The notes under the pieces are model-generated. The model saw only the letters and a list, made by a program, of their open reading frames with translations, was not told where the DNA came from and searched no databases. Of a stretch of DNA of 64,000 nt, positions 1 through 52,352 are shown piece after piece. How positions within the stretch are numbered: the first letter of the stretch is position 1; every line of letters starts with the position of its first letter. The DNA comes from an uncultured bacterium (GTDB lineage Bacteria > Omnitrophota > Omnitrophia > Omnitrophales > Aquincolibacteriaceae), in the NCBI GenBank assembly GCA_964511315.1, contig CAZEFF010000005.1:159-64158 (forward strand), in the 5' to 3' direction. The position numbers and the translations under genes are program-made.

Positions 1-424
1 CGATCATGTGACGGCCGATCACCCGTGAAATCACAATGACGCGTTTCCCCCAGCCCATAATTTGACTTAAAGGATGATTAGAATAATAGCCATGACAAGT
101 TGTCACAAACGGTACAAGGGCCTTGCGCGCGGCAAACCAGCCGATCCACGCCGGAACACGGCTCCGGGCATGGACAATGTCGACACGTTCACGTTCAATA
201 ATTTGCGCGAGTTGCGAAACCAAGGACAATGAGAAAAGAGATTTTTTATGGACCGGAAGCAGATAATGCGTCACATTCATTTTTTGAAGTTCGGAGACAA
301 GCTCTCCCCCGGATGAGACCACCACGGTATCATGCCCCCGCTTTTTAAGCGCGCGGGCAAGATCGATAACACCCCGCTCGACGCCGCCGACATCCAAGGA
401 AGGAATAAGCTGTAATATTTTCAT
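1..424 (-). CDS. Glycosyltransferase family 1/4 (GT-B fold), N-terminal part only; the gene continues past the window start. Probably LPS core/lipid A glycosylation given its operon.
   Basis: Minus-strand ORF with ATG at 424-422 overlapping the upstream stop (ATGA). My translation begins MKILQLIPSLDVGGVERGVIDLARALKKRGHDTVVVSSGGEL, a typical GT4 N-terminal domain. It is last in the waaA-lpxK-lpxL operon. Confidence 0.7.
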   Translation of the reverse strand, partial: MKILQLIPSLDVGGVERGVIDLARALKKRGHDTVVVSSGGELVSELQKMNVTHYLLPVHKKSLFSLSLVSQLAQIIERERVDIVHARSRVPAWIGWFAARKALVPFVTTCHGYYSNHPLSQIMGWGKRVIVISRVIGRHMI

Positions 425-2376
425 AGAATTTCCTGAAGTCTTGTTCTTAAAGCAATCGTTTCGCGGTGGAGCCGTGATTGCCCTGCTGAAGAATCATTTA
501 AAGCCGCCAGCGTTTTTTCCTGAAAATCATTCAGCCCCGCGGTTCGGATAGCCGATTCCCGGGCAAGAATTTCTTTGAAGCGGCGGTGTTTTTTAGGAAG
601 TGCGGCGGAACCCAGCTCAAGAACAACGACCTTCTTACCGGAATTAACCGCCTCTGAAATCATCGAGACGCTGTCTTCCGTCACAATCAAAACATCCGCT
701 AAAGCCATCATTCCGCCCACTACTTCAGGCCGGCTGTCTTCTTTAGCAATGACAACCATTTGACATGCGGGATCCTGCGCGACGATTTCTTTTAAATACT
801 TTGAGATTTTATCCGGGGTCCGGCGTGAAGTGGTAATCACAAAGTCGCCGGCTGCAGGCGACAAGTTTTTTAGTGACGCGACAATACTTTTAACATCCTC
901 AAGGTCCATTTGAAATCTGCGGGTCGGCCCGCCTAAAAAAACCGCGAATTTCACGCGCTTAATATTTCTCATCCGTCCTTTTAATTTTTCAGCGTCTTCT
1001 TCAAGACTATTCTCTTCAACAAGACTCGGAGTTAGGATAGTGCGGAAAGCTTTATCCGGCATTAAGCCCTCATCATGCGCGGGAACAACCGCTAAATCAT
1101 AACGGAAAAAATTGAAAGGAAAACTGGGCTTCATCAAAACAATGCTTTTGGCGCGGCTGTCTTTGGCGATCATAAGATTAATCGGAACCAAACTGGACCC
1201 GGCAGAAATAACAAAATCCGTACTGCTTTCGGCAATTTTTTGCGCGCATTCAGGTTTTAGGAAAAAATGAAGCGTCCAAAGCCTCCCCTGCGCCCAAGGG
1301 AGCAAAAAAAGCGAAATTATTCCAAATAGAGCTCGGTGAAAACCGGATTTAAATTTCACCTCGATGGATTGAGTCAAGTATTCCATGCCCGGCCGGCCGT
1401 ACTGAGAATCAATCTGATGAATTTGCCCCGCCACAGCCTGTGATTGCTTCACATGGCCCGGTTTTCCATCCGAAAGTATCAAAATGCGTTTCGACCAGGA
1501 ATACTTCCAGCGTTTTGTTTCCCAAAGATATTGTTCAGGGTGTTTGCGGATAAACTTTTCAAGATTTCCCATGAACGAGCGCGCGGCTAATTCCAAATCC
1601 TGCTGTTCTTGATTCATTTTTGAAATTTCGATGGGCTCCCCAACATAAATATCATGGTGAATATCTCCGCGCCGGACAATAAAGCAAGGCAGGACAGGCG
1701 CGCCTGTTCGAAGAGCTAAATCAAACGCTCCGGTCGGCACCGTGGTTTTCCGCCCCAGAAATGGGATGATAACTCCGCCTTGTTTACCGGCATCCTGATC
1801 CGCGACAAGCCCAACAAGTTCTTTGCGGCGAAGACCTCTGAGCATATCCCGAATGCCCATTCCCCGGCGGATGGCCATCGATCCGTGACTTTCGCGCAGA
1901 CTGTTTAGAAAATCATTCAAGCGTGAATGTTTATGTCCGCGCGCGAGAACATGAATGGGCTTGCCTAAAATCCCTGAAACGATTTGAAGAAGCTCCCAAT
2001 TCCCAAAGTGTCCTGTAAGCAGGATCAATCCTTTGTCCCGGGCGATCGCCGAATAAAAACGGTCGATATTGTGGATATGAATCGTCCGTTCAATCGTTTC
2101 TTTATCGAGTACGGGAAACCGAAGCGTCTCGATAAACATCTGCCCCATATGCTCATAGTGATCACGGACGAGACGCTTGATTTTGACTTCAGAAAATCCG
2201 GCTCCAAGCGCGGCTTTCATGTCTGAATAGGCTACACGCCGGCGGTTTGAAAACAGCATCGCCGCGCGGCCCAGGAAACGCCCGATCAGCAAAGCGCGTT
2301 CCAGCGGGAGATCTCTGACAAAATCAGAGAAATTCTTTATCAGCAAAAAGCCGATAGAATCCACAAGGGATTTCAC
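421..2376 (-). CDS. Lipid A late acyltransferase (LpxL/HtrB-type lysophospholipid acyltransferase domain, about 300 aa) fused to a C-terminal ELM1/DUF1022-like domain (about 330 aa).
   Basis: 651 aa ORF. The N-terminal half has LPLAT features (LTGHFGNWE, acyltransferase box, DQD). The C-terminal half begins RILILSDGKPGHVKQSQAVAG, resembling bacterial ELM1/DUF1022 proteins. Start overlaps the lpxK stop; the downstream GT overlaps by ATGA. Confidence 0.75.
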   Translation of the reverse strand: MKSLVDSIGFLLIKNFSDFVRDLPLERALLIGRFLGRAAMLFSNRRRVAYSDMKAALGAGFSEVKIKRLVRDHYEHMGQMFIETLRFPVLDKETIERTIHIHNIDRFYSAIARDKGLILLTGHFGNWELLQIVSGILGKPIHVLARGHKHSRLNDFLNSLRESHGSMAIRRGMGIRDMLRGLRRKELVGLVADQDAGKQGGVIIPFLGRKTTVPTGAFDLALRTGAPVLPCFIVRRGDIHHDIYVGEPIEISKMNQEQQDLELAARSFMGNLEKFIRKHPEQYLWETKRWKYSWSKRILILSDGKPGHVKQSQAVAGQIHQIDSQYGRPGMEYLTQSIEVKFKSGFHRALFGIISLFLLPWAQGRLWTLHFFLKPECAQKIAESSTDFVISAGSSLVPINLMIAKDSRAKSIVLMKPSFPFNFFRYDLAVVPAHDEGLMPDKAFRTILTPSLVEENSLEEDAEKLKGRMRNIKRVKFAVFLGGPTRRFQMDLEDVKSIVASLKNLSPAAGDFVITTSRRTPDKISKYLKEIVAQDPACQMVVIAKEDSRPEVVGGMMALADVLIVTEDSVSMISEAVNSGKKVVVLELGSAALPKKHRRFKEILARESAIRTAGLNDFQEKTLAALNDSSAGQSRLHRETIALRTRLQEIL

Positions 2377-4745: not shown

Positions 4746-5624
4746 CTATGCATGCGGATGAGCGGAATCGTAGACTTCTTTAAGCCGCTTTGTCGTCACA
4801 TGGGTATAAATTTGTGTGGTCGATAAATTTTCGTGACCTAATAACTCCTGCACACTTCTAAGATCAGCGCCGCGGTCAAGCATATGGGTCGCAAAGGAAT
4901 GCCTCAGCATATGCGGAGAAACTTCCTTACGCAAAGCAATGCGGCGCGCGTACTTTAAAATCATTCTCCGGACACTCCGGTCTGTTAACCGTCCGCCTGA
5001 ACGGTTCATATAAAGGGCCCGTTTACCGCCGCCGTCATTTTCTCTGGGCGCTTTCATTGCCATGTATTCCTGAATCGCTTTGGCGGCGATAGCACCGACC
5101 GGAACGATTCTTTCTTTCTTACCTTTTCCCCGAACCCGAACAAGCCCTGAAAAAAAATCAACATCGTCGTGGTTGAGTCCAACTAGCTCGCTGACGCGAA
5201 GCCCGGAACTGTAAAGCGTTTCTAAAATCGCGCGGTCTCTTTTTTCTTCCCAGGTATTTTTAGAAGGGGCCTCAAGCAAATTGGTGATTTCAGTAGGTTC
5301 CAAAAATTTGGGGAGTCTTTTTTCTCTTTTAGGTGTCGCGATCGTCGCGGCGGGGTTTGTCTGCAGCACTTGCTCCCTGACAAGGTATTTAAAAAATGAG
5401 CGCAGGCAGGCTAATTTCCGGGCAATTGTGCTCTTAGAATAAGACCGGTTTTTCAAAACCGCTAAAAAAGAACGGATATCGAGGTAGGTGATATTTGAAA
5501 CGGGTTTCTTTTCTAACGTCCCGGTAAATTCACGGAGATCGATCAAATAATTTTTGACCGTATGGTCAGAAGCATTTTTTTCGTTGGAGAGAAACTGGAG
5601 AAAGCTTTGAGCGTGATTATCCAT
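4746..5624 (-). CDS. Tyrosine site-specific recombinase, XerC/XerD family
   Basis: 292 aa; catalytic-region motifs HMLRHSFATHMLDRGADLRSVQELLGHENLSTTQIYTHV with the terminal Tyr; N-terminal SAM-like domain. Stop overlaps the topA stop region (co-directional). Confidence 0.85.
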   Translation of the reverse strand: MDNHAQSFLQFLSNEKNASDHTVKNYLIDLREFTGTLEKKPVSNITYLDIRSFLAVLKNRSYSKSTIARKLACLRSFFKYLVREQVLQTNPAATIATPKREKRLPKFLEPTEITNLLEAPSKNTWEEKRDRAILETLYSSGLRVSELVGLNHDDVDFFSGLVRVRGKGKKERIVPVGAIAAKAIQEYMAMKAPRENDGGGKRALYMNRSGGRLTDRSVRRMILKYARRIALRKEVSPHMLRHSFATHMLDRGADLRSVQELLGHENLSTTQIYTHVTTKRLKEVYDSAHPHA

Positions 5625-8119
5625 TAGGGACCGAGAACTTCACGGTCCTCTTCCGAAATCTCATCATCTTTGCCCATGCCGCCCGATTCTTGATCCTTGC
5701 TCGGCAGTTTATTGGCAATAAAATCACATTTCGGATAATTTGAGCAGCCGTAAAATGTCCGCCTCTTTTTTGACATGCGTTTGACCAGATCCCCATCGCA
5801 TCCTTCTTTGGAGCACTTTACTCCCGTGGGGATTGAGCGGGTTGTCTTACATTCAGGGAAACCTGAGCAGGCCATAAATTTTCCAAAACGGCCCATTTTA
5901 ATAACCATTTGTTTGCCGCAGGCAGTGCAATTATATTCAGTCGGAATCGCTTCCTGCCGGACATTTTTCATTTCTTCGCGGGCGACTTTAACATTTTCTT
6001 CAAACGGCCCATAAAAATCTTTCAGAACACGGACCCACTGCATTTCTCCGTCTTCGATTTTATCAAGTTCATCTTCCATCAAGGCTGTGAACTGGATATC
6101 GAGAACTTTCGGAAAATGCTGCACGAGAAGATTAACCACTGTTTCCCCCAGCTCGGTCGGCATTAAAGCGCCGCCTTTGCGGGTCACATAATCGCGGTAA
6201 AGAAGCGTATAAATGGTCGGCGCGTAGGTGCTCGGGCGGCCAATCCCCTTTTCTTCAAGGATTTTAACGAGACTGGCATCATTAAAACGCGCGGGCGGCT
6301 TCGTAAAATGCTGATATCCAAAAAGCTCATTAAGCTTCAAAATTTCTCCGGGCGTGAGCTGAGGCAGTTCGCTTTCTTCGCTTTCATCTTCTTCGTCTTT
6401 TCCGTCTTTTTCTTCTTTTGGCGCTTTCGAATCTTTCGCTTCACCAAAAACAATGCCAAATCCGGGAAACAAATTACGCCGGCCGGTCGTTTTGAAAAAA
6501 TATTTTGTTCCCGCAACAATGGAAACAGAAACTTGTTCGTCAATCGCAGGCATCATCTGCGAACCTAAGAATTTACGCCAAATTAAGTCATAGAGCCTAA
6601 ATTCATCTTCATCAAGATAACTTTTAATCGATTCGGGAGTCCTTTTAACCGAGCTCGGGCGAATCGCTTCATGCGCTTCCTGCGCGCCTTTTTTAGATTT
6701 GTAAACAGGCGGTTCTTTAGGCAAATAGTTATCACCGTATTTTTGACGGATATAATCAATTGCTTCGGCCTGCGCCGTAACAGAAATATTCACGGAATCG
6801 GTTCTCATATAGGTAATCAAACCGACACTGCCTTCTTCACCGAGCTCAACACCTTCATATAATTTCTGAGCCACGCGCATTGTTTTCGCGGCGGGAAACC
6901 CGAGACGGTTATACGCCTCCTGCTGAATTTTGCTGGTTGTGTACGGAGCCTGCGGTCTGCGAGAACGCTCTTTCTTATCAACCTTGTCGACTTTAAACGG
7001 TAAGGTCAAAATTTCATCGCGGATTTTTTGAGTTTGCTCGCGGTTTTTAAGCTCTACTTTCTCTTCACCAATTCTTTCAAATTTCGCCAGGAAAATTTTT
7101 CCGGCATTCTGCGGTTTTTCGGATAACAGCTTCGCTTCTAAGGACCAGTATTCCTGCGGAACAAAGGCCCGAATTTCTAGTTCGCGGTCCACAATGAAAC
7201 GCAAAGCGACTGACTGCACGCGCCCGGCACTTAAACCCCGTCCGACTTTCCGCCAAAGTAAGGGGCTTAGTTCATAGCCAACAATACGGTCAAGAATCCG
7301 GCGCGCTTGCTGGGCATTAACAAGGTTCATTTCAATTTCACGGGGATGTTCAAACGCCCCTTTTACCGCTTCTTTGGTAATTTCATTAAATACTACGCGG
7401 GAAATTTCAGTTTCGGGATTATCTTCTCTAAAAATATGCGAGAGATGCCAGCTGATCGCTTCCCCTTCACGGTCAGGATCAGGCGCTAAATAAATGCGGG
7501 TTTTTCCTTTGGCTTGTTTGCGCAAATGCTTAACTGTTTTCGAAGCCTTGCGCATCACAATATATTGCGGTTCGAAATCTTTTTCGATTTCGACACCCAT
7601 TTTACTTCTGGGCAAATCGCGGACATGGCCCATAGAAGCTTCGACAAGATAATCGGGGCCTAAAAATTTATTAATGGTTTTAGCTTTCGCGGGAGATTCA
7701 ACAATCACCAGATTGCTCGGACCTTTAACAGAAGATTCTGAATCTGATTTTTTAGCTTTTTTAGCGCGCGGTTTTTTCGGCGCAGCTTCATCTGAAGATT
7801 CGGCTTTGGCTTTTGGCTTGCGGGCACGCGCTTTTTTCGGCGCTTCAGGCTTGGGTTCATCAGCCGGGAGGACTGCGGGCGCTTCTTCTTCCCCGCTTCC
7901 TCCGCCGACAAAATGAAGGACTTCAATGCGGTCGCCATCTTCAATCAAAACATCTTTGAAGGTTTCCCGGGAGATCACTTGTTCGTTATGTTCAACAACA
8001 ACCGTATTGGGATTGATGGAAAAATGGCTAAGAAGCTCAGAAAGAGAGGCTGCAGAGCCCAAGCTCTTTTCTTGCCCATTGAGATAGATCATGATCTGTT
8101 TTTCGTCAGTAGTCTTCAT
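5624..8119 (-). CDS. topA: DNA topoisomerase I (TopA) with an in-frame N-terminal ThiS-like beta-grasp domain plus a Lys/Ala/Pro-rich linker
   Basis: 831 aa ORF containing TOPRIM (LVIVESPAKAKTINKFLG), topo IA core and three C-terminal Zn-ribbon C4 motifs. The N-terminal about 70 aa (MIYLNGQEKSL...DGDRIEVLHFVGGG) closely resembles ThiS (B. subtilis ThiS ends IEIVHFVGGG), followed by about 60 aa of KAP-rich low complexity. An alternative internal GTG start at 7718 would give a conventional TopA. Confidence 0.85.
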   Translation of the reverse strand: MKTTDEKQIMIYLNGQEKSLGSAASLSELLSHFSINPNTVVVEHNEQVISRETFKDVLIEDGDRIEVLHFVGGGSGEEEAPAVLPADEPKPEAPKKARARKPKAKAESSDEAAPKKPRAKKAKKSDSESSVKGPSNLVIVESPAKAKTINKFLGPDYLVEASMGHVRDLPRSKMGVEIEKDFEPQYIVMRKASKTVKHLRKQAKGKTRIYLAPDPDREGEAISWHLSHIFREDNPETEISRVVFNEITKEAVKGAFEHPREIEMNLVNAQQARRILDRIVGYELSPLLWRKVGRGLSAGRVQSVALRFIVDRELEIRAFVPQEYWSLEAKLLSEKPQNAGKIFLAKFERIGEEKVELKNREQTQKIRDEILTLPFKVDKVDKKERSRRPQAPYTTSKIQQEAYNRLGFPAAKTMRVAQKLYEGVELGEEGSVGLITYMRTDSVNISVTAQAEAIDYIRQKYGDNYLPKEPPVYKSKKGAQEAHEAIRPSSVKRTPESIKSYLDEDEFRLYDLIWRKFLGSQMMPAIDEQVSVSIVAGTKYFFKTTGRRNLFPGFGIVFGEAKDSKAPKEEKDGKDEEDESEESELPQLTPGEILKLNELFGYQHFTKPPARFNDASLVKILEEKGIGRPSTYAPTIYTLLYRDYVTRKGGALMPTELGETVVNLLVQHFPKVLDIQFTALMEDELDKIEDGEMQWVRVLKDFYGPFEENVKVAREEMKNVRQEAIPTEYNCTACGKQMVIKMGRFGKFMACSGFPECKTTRSIPTGVKCSKEGCDGDLVKRMSKKRRTFYGCSNYPKCDFIANKLPSKDQESGGMGKDDEISEEDREVLGP

Positions 8120-8249
8120 ATTATAAGGGGGTTACAGAGCCTATCTTGCCCTATGAAGTTCGAGATTCTAATAGAAAATCGAGCCCTTGTAAAACACTAT
8201 GTTTATCGGACGTTAATTGGAGAGGCTTAACTTGTTTAATATCAACCAG

Positions 8250-8642
8250 TTAAGAAATTTGATCCCACGGGTCGTTTTTAGAGGAGGATGAGGAGGGAGG
8301 CTGGCCCTTCTTATCTTTGGCAGGCATTTGGTAAAGCGACTCCAGATGCATGATTTGGGAATCCCGGATGGCTTCTTTCTCTATCCGCTTAATCAGGCGC
8401 TTCAAAACCCCAATGCGCATTCCAAACTTCTCTACACAAAGGGTCGTGAGCAAGCGGGTTAGCAAATTAATGTGAATCTCAGCATCCTGCATTCGGTCTT
8501 CGAGGCCTTGGACAGACTGCAGAAGTTTACTCACCTTTTCTTTAAGATTTTGAACTTCCGTATGAAGGGAAAGTGATTCCGCTGCCTGGTTGAGGCGGAT
8601 TAACGGGGTCACTTTGCGTTTAGTTTTTCTTTTTTTCATCAT
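8250..8642 (-). CDS. Hypothetical small basic coiled-coil protein
   Basis: 130 aa ORF with basic N-terminus (MMKKRKTKRK), predicted coiled coil, Ser-rich C-terminus. AAGGGA RBS and TATAAT-like -10 element upstream. No family recognised. Confidence 0.5.
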   Translation of the reverse strand: MMKKRKTKRKVTPLIRLNQAAESLSLHTEVQNLKEKVSKLLQSVQGLEDRMQDAEIHINLLTRLLTTLCVEKFGMRIGVLKRLIKRIEKEAIRDSQIMHLESLYQMPAKDKKGQPPSSSSSKNDPWDQIS

Positions 8643-8785: not shown

Positions 8786-9208
8786 TTAGACAGCAACAAC
8801 TTTTGTTTTCGCGATTTTATCTCCGATTCTTTCTCCCTTGATAATGACATGGATAAGTTCGGCGATATATCCCACGATGAGAACAAAAGGAATGATCAAA
8901 AGAATATTGCGCAGAAAAGCCTGCACAATCGTAACTTTTTCTCCCGTTTGGCTCACAAGTTTAAGATCCGTCATGTAGCGGGCAGGTGAGAAAACCAGGT
9001 CTCTGAAAACAAGCCAGAGAATATTCACCACAACCAAAATCACATTACGGGCACCTTCCGGAGCACGAAAAAGAACAAGTCCCATCAGCACACCCAATAA
9101 AATCGGCATATCAATAAGATCAATAATGCCTGAGGCAATACGCCGTCTTAACGGGGCTGAAGAACCACCACCACTCATAAATTCTGACATAACGTTAACT
9201 CCTTTCAC
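8786..9208 (-). CDS. RDD-family membrane protein
   Basis: 140 aa with three predicted TM segments and the R-D-D pattern (RRRIASGIIDLID ... FRDLVF) typical of PF06271. Confidence 0.6.
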   Translation of the reverse strand: MKGVNVMSEFMSGGGSSAPLRRRIASGIIDLIDMPILLGVLMGLVLFRAPEGARNVILVVVNILWLVFRDLVFSPARYMTDLKLVSQTGEKVTIVQAFLRNILLIIPFVLIVGYIAELIHVIIKGERIGDKIAKTKVVAV

Positions 9209-9266: not shown

Positions 9267-10373
9267 TTAGAGACGGCTTTTGACTGCTGAATACATTCCT
9301 GCCGAGGTCCGGACAATCCGCCCCTGAATTTCGAGCGTAATCACCCTTTGCGAAAGCATGGAAACGGACCATTGGGACTGTTTTAGTAAATCTTCAAAGC
9401 GCTTGGGCCCTTCCGCCAATATCCCAAGCAGCTCATCCTGATCTAAATGAGCATTTTCTCCGGCCATCAACTCGCTTTTGCTTTCACGGCCCATCAAGGG
9501 CCAAAGGTTCGGCGCGAGTGTTTCAAAAATTTCTTCCGGGGTTTCGACAAGCGCGGCACCTTCTTTAATTAGACCATTTGTTCCGCGCGAAGTAATTTGA
9601 TCAATGGGCCCGGGAATCGCGAAGACTTCTTTCCCTTGCTCCATCGCTTGGTTCGCGGTAATGAGTGAACCGCTTCGTGAATGCGCTTCCACCACCAAAA
9701 CTCCGAGCGATAATCCGGCGATAATCCTGTTGCGCGCGGGAAAATGATAAGCTAAAGGCTCAGCGCCAAAAGCATATTCACTTAGAATCACTCCGCGCTC
9801 AGCAATCGCGTCATAAAGCTTTTGGCTGGATTTTGGATAAACAACATCGATTCCGCATCCGAGTACCGCGATCGTTCGGCCGAAAGAAACTTCAAGCGAA
9901 GCATGATGAGCGACCTGATCAATTCCTTGCGCAAGACCTGAAACAATCGTGATTCCCTTCGCGGCAAGTTCCCGCGAAAACCGTCCGGCTTGCGCGCGCC
10001 CATAAAAACTCGGATGCCTCGTCCCGACAATGGCAAGACTCGCCTCATCGGTTTCAGAAAAACTCCCCTTAGCATAAAGCATCAGCGGCGGATCAATTAA
10101 ATGGGTAAGAGCCTGCGGATAATCCGCGGAAAACAAGGTGAGAAGTTTTACGTCTTTTCTTTCGGCGTTTTCAATTTCGCGGTCCGCGCTAAACTCCACG
10201 GAAAGCTGCGCGTCATTTTCCGCTTTGCCTAAATAATTTTCTATCCTAATTTTTTCCAGCAATTCTAAAGGAGAATGTCCATCTTTTAGAAACTCTACCG
10301 CCTGACGGCTTCTGCCCGCGAACAAACGGTTTAATTGGACTAAGGCTTTTAACTCTTCGTAAGAAAGCCCCAT
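9267..10373 (-). CDS. dprA: DNA processing protein DprA (Smf)
   Basis: 368 aa; Rossmann-like DprA core motifs (AIVGTRHPSFYG, GLAQGIDQVAHHASL, VLGCGIDVVYP) and a C-terminal winged-helix region. Confidence 0.9.
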   Translation of the reverse strand: MGLSYEELKALVQLNRLFAGRSRQAVEFLKDGHSPLELLEKIRIENYLGKAENDAQLSVEFSADREIENAERKDVKLLTLFSADYPQALTHLIDPPLMLYAKGSFSETDEASLAIVGTRHPSFYGRAQAGRFSRELAAKGITIVSGLAQGIDQVAHHASLEVSFGRTIAVLGCGIDVVYPKSSQKLYDAIAERGVILSEYAFGAEPLAYHFPARNRIIAGLSLGVLVVEAHSRSGSLITANQAMEQGKEVFAIPGPIDQITSRGTNGLIKEGAALVETPEEIFETLAPNLWPLMGRESKSELMAGENAHLDQDELLGILAEGPKRFEDLLKQSQWSVSMLSQRVITLEIQGRIVRTSAGMYSAVKSRL

Positions 10374-50295: not shown

Positions 50296-51063
50296 TTAGC
50301 CGCAGATACCGCGCGGAGATTCCTGCAAAAAATTAACCAGGATATCTAAAGCCGGCGTTTTGGGGAGCTCCGCTTGAATTTGAGCGATCGCGCTTTTGAG
50401 CGAAAGTCCCGAGCGGAAAATAATCTTGAATGCTTTCTTTAGCGCGGCTTTTTCTTCTTTAGAAACGCCCGCGCGGTTTAATCCAACCGAGTTCAGGCCA
50501 AATGCTTCGGCCGGATGACCATCGACCATCATGTACGGCGGAACATCCTGAACAACTTTAGAGCAGCCTCCGATAATCGCCAGATGTCCAATATGCACAA
50601 ATTGATGAACACCTGTGAGTCCGCCAATAATTGCGGCGTCGTCCACCACAACATGCCCAGCAAGAGTGGCTGAATTCGCCAGAACAGTGTTGTTTTTAAC
50701 AATGCAGTCGTGTGCCACATGGCAGTAAGCCATCAGCAAATTATCATTCCCAATTACAGTTTCTGTCCCCGGCTTGGTACCGGGATTAATCGTGACATAT
50801 TCACGAATTTTATTCCGGCTGCCGATTTTAAGATAACTAATCCCCCCTTCAAATTTTTTGTCTTGGGTACGGCTCCCAATCACAGCACCGGTAAAAATTT
50901 CATTTTCCGCACCAATAATGGTATTACCTTCAATGGTCGCGCGGGGTCCTACAATAGTCCCGGGACCGATTTTTACCGGTCCGGAGATAATCGCGTAGGG
51001 CCCCACCTGAACATCTTCAGCCAGTTCAGCGATCGGATCAACAATCGCTGTCGGATGGATCAT
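50296..51063 (-). CDS. lpxA: UDP-N-acetylglucosamine O-acyltransferase LpxA
   Basis: Start MIHPTAIVDP at 51063 (TGATG overlap with the lpxC/fabZ stop); left-handed beta-helix hexapeptide repeats; C-terminal helical domain. Confidence 0.9.
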   Translation of the reverse strand: MIHPTAIVDPIAELAEDVQVGPYAIISGPVKIGPGTIVGPRATIEGNTIIGAENEIFTGAVIGSRTQDKKFEGGISYLKIGSRNKIREYVTINPGTKPGTETVIGNDNLLMAYCHVAHDCIVKNNTVLANSATLAGHVVVDDAAIIGGLTGVHQFVHIGHLAIIGGCSKVVQDVPPYMMVDGHPAEAFGLNSVGLNRAGVSKEEKAALKKAFKIIFRSGLSLKSAIAQIQAELPKTPALDILVNFLQESPRGICG

Positions 51064-52352
51064 CAACGATCCACGACTGCGAACTTCACTTCCGCTTCGC
51101 ATACAAGCTTTTCTCCCACATAAGCGCGTCCCGAACATTGTCCGGTTTTCGCGCGGATTTTCGTGACCTCGACTTCCATGCGGAGCTCGTCGCCGGGAAG
51201 TACGGGTTGACGGAATTTCGCGAAATCAATGCTCATAAAATAAGCGATTTTGTTCCGATTTTCAGGCTTGCTGAGCATAATCACACCGCCGACTTGCGCC
51301 ATGGCCTCAATAATCAGAACCCCAGGCATCACCGGATGTCCGGGAAAGTGGCCTTGAAAAAAGTAATCATTCATAGTCACTTGTTTGAATCCGACAGCTT
51401 TGACGCCGGGTTCAAAATTCTCAATCCGGTCCACAAATAAAAATGGATAACGGTGCGGAATAATTTTTTGAATAATTTCCGCATTTAAAACAGCCGGCAG
51501 CGGAGAAGGCAGAAGATCATCTTGTTGTTGGCTCATGGCTAGTTTCCTCACAAATTCAAGATTTAAGGCATGCCCGCTTCGCGTAGCGATCACATGCCCT
51601 TTGATAAAACCGCCGACCAAAAACAGATCCCCGAGGAGATCGAGAATTTTATGGCGGCAGGCCTCATCCTCAAAACGAAGCTTGTTTTGGATAGGTTCAT
51701 TTTTTTCAAAAACGAGAGTGTTGGAAAGATTCGCGCCTTGTCCAAAACCCTGGGCTAAAAGAGCCTCGGCTTCCTGCTTCAAGCAAAAAGTCCTAGCCGG
51801 GGCCAGATCCCGTTCGAAAATTTCAGGCAGGATCGTCATGGTCAAAAACTGATCCTTCAAATCTTCATGCCGATAACTGAGCATGTAGGAAATCATCAGA
51901 TTCGGCGCGGGAAGAATGATCAAAGACTGATCACCGCGGTCAATAAAAACAGGCTTCTCCACGGTCAAATAACGCCGTACGGCTTCCTGCTCGAGCAATC
52001 CTACTTTTAAAATTGCTTCAACATACCCCGCCGAGCTTCCATCCATACCCGGAAGCTCCTCGCCGTCAACTTCCACATAAACATTATCAACACCAAGGCC
52101 GTGAAAAACGGCCATCAAGTGTTCGATCGTGCGGATTCGGCCGGCCCCAACTTTAAGGGCCGTCTGGCGCATTTCATCAGATGAAACCTGATCGGAAGCT
52201 GCTTTAACCTTAATCGAAGGGTCAAGATCTACCCTCGAAAAAACAATTCCGGCATTTGGTTCGGCGGGACAAATACGAAGCTTGGCTAGACGCCCCGTGT
52301 GAAGGCCTTGCCCTTCAAACGAAATTGGTTCGCGAAGCGTTCTTTGCTTCAT
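51063..52352 (-). CDS. Bifunctional LpxC-FabZ fusion (UDP-3-O-acyl-GlcNAc deacetylase plus 3-hydroxyacyl-ACP dehydratase)
   Basis: 429 aa; N-terminal LpxC (ISFEGQGLHTGRLAKLRICPAEPNAGIVF, HxxxD Zn site); C-terminal FabZ hot-dog (PHRYPFLFVDRI...HFPGHPVMPGVLIIEAMAQ). Confidence 0.9.
   Translation of the reverse strand: MKQRTLREPISFEGQGLHTGRLAKLRICPAEPNAGIVFSRVDLDPSIKVKAASDQVSSDEMRQTALKVGAGRIRTIEHLMAVFHGLGVDNVYVEVDGEELPGMDGSSAGYVEAILKVGLLEQEAVRRYLTVEKPVFIDRGDQSLIILPAPNLMISYMLSYRHEDLKDQFLTMTILPEIFERDLAPARTFCLKQEAEALLAQGFGQGANLSNTLVFEKNEPIQNKLRFEDEACRHKILDLLGDLFLVGGFIKGHVIATRSGHALNLEFVRKLAMSQQQDDLLPSPLPAVLNAEIIQKIIPHRYPFLFVDRIENFEPGVKAVGFKQVTMNDYFFQGHFPGHPVMPGVLIIEAMAQVGGVIMLSKPENRNKIAYFMSIDFAKFRQPVLPGDELRMEVEVTKIRAKTGQCSGRAYVGEKLVCEAEVKFAVVDR

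Follow-up and report, generated by a model that had tools for sequence, protein, structure and literature searches.

A ThiS domain at the N-terminus of topoisomerase I in Omnitrophota-type genomes: a candidate polyprotein

The fused gene and its domains

The DNA analysed (the window) is a stretch of 64,000 nucleotides from an uncultured Omnitrophota bacterium (GenBank assembly GCA_964511315.1, contig CAZEFF010000005.1, positions 159 to 64,158 of the forward strand). The gene under study lies on its minus strand and encodes topoisomerase I (TopA) with a domain of the sulfur carrier ThiS at the N-terminus. As described in a first-pass annotation made from the letters, the ThiS-like part runs in frame through a linker into LVIVESPAKAK, and the whole is one frame of 831 codons. 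The identical 831-aa protein was found as P0373 on a 65,349-bp contig at NCBI. The features of the gene are as follows.

5624..8119, minus strand: ThiS-linker-TopA fusion open reading frame (ORF), 831 aa, a single frame from the ATG at 8119 to the stop at 5624.
7898..8092, minus strand: ThiS domain (predicted beta-grasp), residues 10-74, ending HFVGGG; from TIGR01683, PF02597, 1tyg_B and the AlphaFold2 (AF2) model.
7898..7906, minus strand: Gly-Gly-Gly codons of the ThiS domain, residues 72-74.
7712..7897, minus strand: linker, residues 75-136, ending GPSN; from composition, AF2 and homologue comparison.
7379..7711, minus strand: Toprim domain of TopA, residues 137-247, beginning LVIVESPAKAK; PF01751, E 1.5e-19, and TIGR01051 from residue 137.
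6020..7336, minus strand: type IA topoisomerase core, residues 262-700, including the active-site tyrosine motif GLITYMRTDS; PF01131, E 8e-120, with the motif read from the translation.
5684..5938, minus strand: two C-terminal Zn-ribbon modules of TopA, approximately residues 728-812; PF01396 twice, E 1.8e-24, top stretch 730-764, with cysteine pairs in the translation.

A profile search, which the first-pass annotation had proposed for the N-terminal module, identified it as a true ThiS. Residues 11-74 covered the full length of TIGR01683, the NCBIfam thiS equivalog (model positions 1-64 of 64), at 63.9 bits within the full-length protein and at 69.6-70.7 bits when the domain was searched alone, the cut-off being 37.45 bits. 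The Pfam ThiS family PF02597 was matched at E 4e-10 in the whole protein and 6.8e-12 alone (40.5-46.2 bits, cut-off 22.5). The nearest solved relative is Bacillus subtilis ThiS in its complex with ThiG (chain 1tyg_B, E 3.9e-9), the C-terminal HFVGGG of which pairs with HFVGGG of the window protein; the solved ThiS structures 2k5p and 1f0z were also matched by sequence. In the AF2 model, residues 9-70 form strands at 9-13 and 16-20, a helix at 26-32 and strands at 40-44, 47-49 and 65-69, with a predicted local distance difference test score (pLDDT) of 92-95; the predicted fold is beta-grasp, in the order beta-beta-alpha-beta-beta-beta. Met10, the second in-frame ATG (8092), opens the sequence MIYLNG, the usual N-terminus of ThiS, and may be the real start of the fusion gene.

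The TopA part (residues 137-763) matched TIGR01051 (topA_bact) at 790 bits, with a cut-off of 456.4, and the motifs VESP, DPDREGE and GLITYMRTDS are present in the translation. Judged by profile and motifs, this region is a complete bacterial type IA TopA. The linker between the two parts has 62 residues (75-136), among them 13 Lys, 12 Ala, 9 Pro, 8 Ser and 8 Glu. Its first 20 or so residues are acidic and Pro-rich (net charge -5), and the remaining 42 are basic and Lys/Ala/Pro-rich (net +10). In the AF2 model of the window protein, the linker was without secondary structure (pLDDT 51-62) and the Toprim domain was confident, with a predicted template modelling score (pTM) of 0.52. In P0004, which has a linker of 5 residues, the VGGG junction was modelled at pLDDT <50. 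Since the junction is of low confidence even with 5 residues and the 62-residue linker is predicted to be disordered, the Gly-Gly junction is probably accessible. Across the AF2 models, pTM was 0.46-0.52 and no confident packing of ThiS on Toprim was seen, as would be expected of two domains that are independent of each other.

Proteins of the ThiS/MoaD/ubiquitin type act through the carboxylate of their last glycine. In the window protein, Gly-Gly-Gly is followed by 757 further in-frame residues without a stop, so the domain has no free C-terminal carboxylate, and the primary translation product cannot be a carrier because its Gly-Gly is not terminal. The view of the first-pass annotation that such a Gly-Gly cannot carry a thiocarboxylate unless the protein is processed therefore stands; the free carboxylate would arise only by cleavage. 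A programmed frameshift at the G-run that ends ThiS was considered and rejected, the alternative frames beyond GGG staying open. The sole alternative start near Toprim is an in-frame GTG, which is Val138 of LVIVESP and lies at 7708..7706, not at 7718 as first annotated.

Distribution, selection and origin of the fusion

The same extension is carried by topA of relatives, a comparison that had also been suggested in the first annotation. Among the 120 best full-length homologues of the window protein, 85 have the same four-domain architecture (757-840 aa, 57-71% identity). These fused homologues come from NCBI, JGI, ENA and Logan assemblies, and where a name is given, it is 'type I DNA topoisomerase' or 'hypothetical protein', with Candidatus Omnitrophica/Omnitrophota as the organism. 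One genome per species, 185,579 species in all, was also searched with a DNA pattern of the junction (FVGGG, 10-40 nt, IVESP, 58 nt, ATGGG). Thirty-two loci were returned: 24 in-frame fusions with linkers of 3-13 residues, all in GTDB species representatives, and 8 with a separate thiS. The 32 loci belong to metagenome-assembled genomes (MAGs) labelled Omnitrophota or 'uncultured Planctomycetia/Planctomycetales', two being titled just 'uncultured bacterium'; the differently labelled loci group among the Omnitrophota ones in TopA trees and in a census of gene order. The fusion is real, common, recurrent and lineage-restricted to Omnitrophota-type genomes, which belong to uncultured bacteria of groundwater. 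Searches with the N-terminal fragment and against 50% representatives gave just truncated fusion fragments and about 8 representative clusters, an undercount relative to the full-length search. A long-gap version of the junction pattern gave no in-frame long linker in JGI metagenomes, though it yielded the split locus L038; in the full-length search, 31 of the 85 linkers exceed 40 residues.

Further observations concern individual fused copies and other ThiS fusions. Two different fused thiS-topA genes, L011 and L014, lie on two contigs of the same MAG (CAYJSE01), which could be a mixed bin or a real duplication. In the metagenomic fused copies L001 (884..887) and L002 (approximately 1004..1062), the reading frame is broken within the TopA core and away from the ThiS junction, the frameshifts being probable errors of assembly. 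In the metagenomic protein P0337, a clade-A-like ThiS is in frame with the C-terminal part of a family-9 glycosyltransferase (junction GGGSPARALVII), and in P0363, also metagenomic, an N-terminal ThiS is in frame with a glyoxalase/VOC domain, with a Met right behind GGG. Both may be further stop-loss fusions or chimeric contigs.

Linker length among the 85 fused homologues is continuous from 3 to 76 residues, with a median of 34. The long linkers share a design: an acidic, Pro-rich first third (mean charge -3.6), a basic, Lys/Ala/Pro-rich remainder (+9.3) and an end that reads (K/S)GP(K/R/S)N. Unfused TopA relatives open with the same basic tail, for instance MPKAAKGEKKKKSSGPSN-LVIVESP, so the basic half of the linker is best read as TopA's own N-terminal tail; from the sequences compared, the acidic segment alone is peculiar to the fused forms. 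Long basic tails also exist on unfused TopA, since in L038 (Ga0209573_1015993) a split thiS ends VGGGAA*, topA starts 1 nt on, and the separate TopA has a Lys/Ala/Pro-rich tail of about 55 residues (MAKTPARKKKTPAVPGAVPAAPKSAAAAKS...). In other bacteria, Lys/Ala/Pro-rich N-terminal TopA tails were found in P0081 (with PF07382) and P0289. The linker had been likened to histone H1 tails, and in being basic, Lys/Ala/Pro-rich and like a DNA-binding tail it answers to that description; however, it matched no Pfam family at E <= 0.01, its H1/HC2-type likeness (e.g. PF07382) being one of composition only, and its basic half belongs to TopA and is not an appendage of ThiS. Tandem duplication was considered as a source of the linker and rejected, Tandem Repeats Finder giving just trivial repeats of 7-9 bp.

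The fused ThiS domain is under purifying selection. Fused domains scored 69-83 bits against the thiS model and separate ThiS proteins 63-84 bits, all over the full model length. For the ThiS domain of the closest fused pair (L003/L007), the nonsynonymous rate (dN) was 0.09 and the synonymous rate (dS) 1.11, an omega of 0.08, the omega of Toprim being 0.05; over 276 fused pairs, the mean proportion of nonsynonymous differences (pN) in the ThiS domain was 0.33 versus 0.77 for synonymous ones (pS). Residues N14, G15, E43, N45, E66, G73 and G74 are invariant in 85/85 fused homologues, and the tail VGGG is kept in 79 of them, with ThiS domains just 36-55% identical to that of the window. These homologues were found by their similarity to TopA, so that their selection introduces no bias towards Gly-Gly. 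The low omega, the full scores and the invariant Gly-Gly together indicate that the fused ThiS is held by selection, including a diglycine that is relevant just to C-terminal chemistry.

Separate synthesis of TopA from an internal promoter or an internal start was considered and rejected: there is no promoter-like site between the domains, and five relatives have no start codon there. The latter count comes from 25 short-linker fused loci, in 5 of which neither ATG, GTG nor TTG is found in frame from GGG to VES; in those five, TopA can be translated only as a fusion. ATG occurs there in 0/25. In the other 20, GTG or TTG occurs in frame within the LVIVESP strand, often with GGAGG spelt by the Gly codons upstream.

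A separate thiS is present at 12 loci, namely 8 of the 32 pattern loci and L035, L037, L038 and L044. These ThiS proteins end in VGGG* or in VGGG plus 1-3 residues, and thiS runs up to or into topA, its stop codon sharing bases with the topA start (TAATG, TGATG) or lying 1 nt before a GTG. At L009 and L013, the thiS stop is in frame with topA, reading GGGT*AMAKNLIIVESP and GGG*ELAKHLVIVESP, respectively. Short fused linkers (GGG-A..AK-ALVIVESP) correspond to the former TopA N-terminus MAK(N/K)LVIVESP minus its Met. Because the thiS stop of relatives overlaps or abuts the topA start, the fusion arose by loss of the stop codon in a translationally coupled thiS-topA pair.

Close relatives that share the window's gene order show all three states: fusion in the window itself and in L033, a split in L044, where ThiS ends VGGGS* 1 nt before the topA ATG, and absence of thiS in L036 and L045. 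In neighbour-joining TopA trees with bootstrap, parsimony required at least 2 changes of state in 100/100 replicates, so the fusion, or its reversal, occurred repeatedly. As sister lineages with this gene order have no ThiS or a free one, TopA does not need ThiS, and the alternation of fused, split and absent states suggests that a free ThiS is functional in the sister lineages. Extra residues past GGG (S, T, A, AR, AL, AA and SSG) are present in 7 of the 12 separate ThiS proteins; the lineage would thus have been able to trim ThiS C-termini before the fusion, and with that ability loss of the stop codon would be harmless.

The elements and genes around the fusion are as follows.

4746..5624, minus strand: XerC/D-type tyrosine recombinase, downstream neighbour, its start overlapping the topA stop; Pfam, synteny.
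8165..8193, minus strand: promoter-like TTTACA-17-TAGAAT, 5' of the ThiS start, 10 of 12 matches.
8201..8212, minus strand: conserved motif CGTCCGATAAAC, just 5' of the promoter-like site; read in the window.
8250..8642, minus strand: small 130-aa coiled-coil protein without a Pfam match, ending ...DPWDQIS.
8786..9208, minus strand: RDD protein, upstream neighbour; Pfam.
9267..10373, minus strand: DprA, upstream neighbour; Pfam.

Synteny of the neighbours was compared over at least 30 loci. The common gene order is ilvC-leuA-aroE-pilD-aroC-aroK-aroB-dprA-(RDD, small coiled-coil protein)-[thiS]topA-xerC-waaA-lpxK-lpxL; at L035, thiS still adjoins topA though the genes further upstream differ. 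In the sub-clade of the window (L013, L024, L033, L034, L036, L044 and L045), the 130-aa coiled-coil protein is conserved and encoded directly before thiS/topA. ORFs of unknown family around the related loci are mostly antisense artefacts.

The promoter-like element, in its general form TTTACA-N17-TAnAAT across loci, precedes thiS-topA in L001 and L044 and stands directly before topA in the thiS-less L036 and L045; in a scan of the window, no comparable site was found between ThiS and Toprim. The motif CGTCCGATAAAC was also found in L001 (approximately 191-202), L036 (approximately 1126-1137) and L045 (approximately 9875-9886), and a close variant, CGTCCTATAAAC, in L044 (approximately 9665-9676). 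The combination CGTCCGATAAAC...TTTACA thus precedes thiS where thiS is present and topA where it is absent, and the motif may be an operator or UP-like element for topA.

Other features of these loci were noted in passing. In L004, from a split-state MAG, the stretch from aroK to dprA contains a 142-aa ORF with a DSGAS motif like that of retropepsins, at 689..1117 of the topA-oriented copy (reverse complement) and approximately 5666..6094 of the stored L004; it is not conserved elsewhere. In the window, LpxC and a FabZ/FabA-like dehydratase (PF03331 and PF07977) share one 429-aa ORF (51063..52352, minus strand); bifunctional LpxC-FabZ proteins are known from some other phyla. A lipid A acyltransferase (PF03279) is joined to Mito_fiss_Elm1 (PF06258) in a 651-aa protein (421..2376, minus strand), a fusion that is conserved across the clade downstream of lpxK and is also present in L002, L044 and L045.

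Proposed processing of the fusion protein and alternative readings

The gene may encode a polyprotein that is cut behind Gly-Gly(-Gly) and thereby frees both ThiS and TopA, a reading to which a probability of roughly 55% is given. We infer the cleavage, the protease and the pathway that ThiS would serve. In its origin, a thiS directly in front of topA, in translational coupling through an overlap of its stop with the topA start codon, lost that stop, and ThiS is now translated as the N-terminus of topoisomerase I. Under the polyprotein reading, the enzyme that cuts the chain behind the Gly-Gly(-Gly) of ThiS would most likely be a peptidase of the JAMM/MPN+ type or a similar one, with its gene elsewhere in the genome. 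One product would be a normal ThiS of 7-8 kDa with a free C-terminal glycine, to be adenylated and thiocarboxylated by an E1-like enzyme. The other would be a normal TopA that keeps the linker as its N-terminal tail, the basic half being its own tail of the DNA-binding type. Cleavage is favoured because of the alternation of fused and free states, the invariant Gly-Gly, the extended separate ThiS proteins, the flexible predicted junction and the precedents of MoaX and the JAMM proteases. A further point in its favour is that GCA_023819315.1, an Omnitrophota MAG of 93% completeness that may or may not be close to the fusion clade, lists thiS together with K21029, presumably moeB (E1-like), and K21140, presumably a mec-type JAMM (Seymour et al. 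2023 source data).

Several points weigh against processing. In the window, no thi, moa, E1-like or JAMM gene was found when 56 ORF translations were read and crude motif scans were run, which is not a full profile annotation; the first-pass annotation had likewise reported that the window lacks partner genes for thiamine or molybdenum cofactor. No JAMM, E1, thiF, thiG or thiH was found in about 350 kb of related loci, the extent of that search; thiF, thiG, thiH and thiO are in neither the 64-kb window nor the flanks of about 40 related loci. The motif HxHx7SxxD was absent from ORFs of the window and related loci, save one chance match in a spurious ORF of L004. Stability of the fusion across a large clade would also fit a permanently tethered domain, as would the acidic Pro-rich segment that long linkers have gained and that unfused TopA tails lack.

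A thiamine role of ThiS is also doubtful, since thiG and thiF are absent from both Omnitrophota genomes with readable KEGG Orthology (KO) lists (Seymour et al. 2023 source data, PMC10066038) and one of the two lists K22699. Both genomes have thiE and thiL; the other one lists thiM (K00878). K22699 is presumably the ThiS-independent Thi4-type thiazole synthase, and Omnitrophota may make the thiazole by a route other than ThiS/ThiG. The statement that thiamine synthesis is common in the phylum is weak on this point, because the KEGG 'thiamine' module in that work consists of thiC and thiD only (Seymour et al. 2023, PMC10066038).

The strongest competitor of processing, though clearly the less probable of the two, is a stable two-domain enzyme, in which ThiS stays uncut and has taken on a new role as a ubiquitin-like domain at the N-terminus of TopA. 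A partner, whether E1-like, ThiG-like or another protein, could dock on the domain, or the domain could regulate TopA activity or stability, and the acidic-basic linker would be a flexible tether or an auto-inhibitory element. Such an enzyme would agree with the fusion being the majority state (85 of the 120 best homologues) and fixed in a large clade, with linkers elaborated to 76 residues in a recurrent acidic-then-basic design, and with the lack of a protease gene near the fusion in the window and related loci; ubiquitin-like domains are, moreover, permanent interaction modules in many proteins. However, sister lineages with the same gene order have a TopA without ThiS or with a free ThiS, and the separate ThiS of the clade does not differ in kind of sequence from the fused one. 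An invariant terminal Gly-Gly and an equivalog-level ThiS sequence have no obvious need in a docking domain, and AF2 gave a low-confidence junction and no confident ThiS-Toprim packing (pTM 0.46-0.52). Between a processed precursor and a stable architecture, the evidence leans towards processing.

An unlikely, more far-reaching possibility is a ubiquitin-like processing system of Omnitrophota, with ThiS-TopA as a bacterial equivalent of the ubiquitin fusion genes of eukaryotes. ThiS would be made on an essential DNA enzyme and freed by a peptidase dedicated to its Gly-Gly; it would then serve another pathway as a sulfur carrier, or modify proteins as TtuB and the SAMPs do, and may have no part in ThiG-dependent thiamine synthesis. 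Its removal could also gate the activity of the basic N-terminal tail of TopA. Of the two genomes with KO lists, both without thiG and thiF, one has the presumed Thi4-type, MoeB-type E1 and Mec-type JAMM entries.

Neutral read-through, with ThiS as a decaying or functionless passenger and TopA made from an internal start such as the GTG at 7708, is very improbable. The GTG or TTG codons in the LVIVESP strand of 20/25 short-linker loci, often with GGAGG upstream, would suit it, and loss of thiS is possible at the locus. The selection analysis largely refutes it (omega 0.08, profile scores undiminished), and the fusion persists across lineages that share just 36-55% identity in ThiS. In the window, there is no promoter-like site between the domains and a start at GTG 7708 would cut off part of the first Toprim strand; five loci have no possible internal start. 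The proposal that the upstream frame is open by chance, with translation starting only at the internal GTG, accordingly fails on the omega of 0.08 and on the five fused relatives without a start codon from GGG to Toprim.

A sequencing, assembly or binning artefact, in which a stop was lost or the frame shifted at the junction, is refuted despite the G-rich junction and the frameshifts of L001 and L002, which lie further downstream in topA, as the same in-frame fusion occurs in at least 85 protein clusters from many independent assemblies of four sources (NCBI, JGI, ENA and Logan) and in 24 species-representative genomes, with fused copies that differ widely in linker sequence and length.

Comparison with known systems

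The two classic surveys of beta-grasp and prokaryotic ubiquitin-like proteins list fusions of ThiS-ThiG, ThiS-ThiF, sulfite reductase-ThiS and MoaD-MoaE; ThiS-ThiG and ThiS-ThiF are in Iyer et al. 2006 (PMC1779556). Neither survey mentions topoisomerase or Toprim. Literature searches for 'ThiS' mostly return the ordinary word 'this', and a full-text search returned no paper that ties a sulfur carrier to a topoisomerase I fusion. A new architecture was one of the two options in the first-pass annotation; it is not unique to the window genome and is present, unremarked, in public records. As pipelines label the fusions 'type I DNA topoisomerase' or 'hypothetical protein', thiS may be scored missing in pathway reconstructions.

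The fusion has the layout of a linear ubiquitin-like precursor, that is, N-terminal, in frame and with Gly-Gly directly before the partner. Of the known cases, the nearest are MoaX of Mycobacterium tuberculosis and DR2607, the MoaD-MoaE protein of Deinococcus radiodurans, in which a carrier of the ThiS/MoaD family is likewise in frame at the N-terminus with an internal Gly-Gly. Activity of MoaX requires a cut at Gly82|Ser83 (PMC4326299); the linear MoaD-MoaE fusion is a substrate of the D. radiodurans JAMM/MPN+ protease, as linear SAMP fusions are of HvJAMM1 (PMC8832034). In MoaX and DR2607, the carrier is MoaD-type, the partner is the carrier's own enzyme MoaE and cleavage is proven, whereas here the carrier is ThiS-type on an unrelated essential DNA enzyme and cleavage is putative.

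ThiS-ThiG, ThiS-ThiF, QbsE, HcyS and CysO are also ThiS-family carriers whose Gly-Gly is not terminal. QbsE and HcyS have short C-terminal extensions that are removed by JAMM proteases, and they parallel the extensions of 1-3 residues found here. These systems are encoded in operons of their own pathways; in contrast, the thiS described here is in a dprA-topA-xerC housekeeping cluster without pathway genes nearby.

On the side of the partner, chlamydial TopA-SWIB and the Lys-rich TopA tails of actinobacteria are comparable in that TopA tolerates extra modules and basic low-complexity tails, and the core of the window protein is matched by NF004966 ('DNA topoisomerase I/SWI domain fusion protein'). 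Such additions have to do with DNA or chromatin and mostly sit at the C-terminus, unlike an N-terminal sulfur carrier without an obvious DNA role. Without cleavage, the protein would be a type IA topoisomerase with an accessory domain of a new kind. In either case, the series of absent, separate, 1-3-residue-extended and fused thiS in an otherwise identical gene order is a clean system for the origin of fusions from coupled genes, for their tolerance and for the question of whether the protease came first.

Closest in logic are the eukaryotic ubiquitin-L40 (UBA52) and ubiquitin-S27a (RPS27A) genes, in which a ubiquitin-fold protein lies N-terminal to an unrelated essential housekeeping protein, with Gly-Gly and then the partner. 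Ubiquitin is released from these products by deubiquitinases. The present fusion differs in carrier family (ThiS), in partner and in that processing would have to be assumed; conjugation of ThiS to proteins is not evidenced. If ThiS-TopA is cleaved, it would predict a ThiS-specific C-terminal hydrolase in an uncultured phylum and would be the first bacterial case found of a ubiquitin-fold carrier made routinely on an unrelated essential housekeeping protein, a logic formerly associated with the eukaryotic ubiquitin-ribosomal protein genes.

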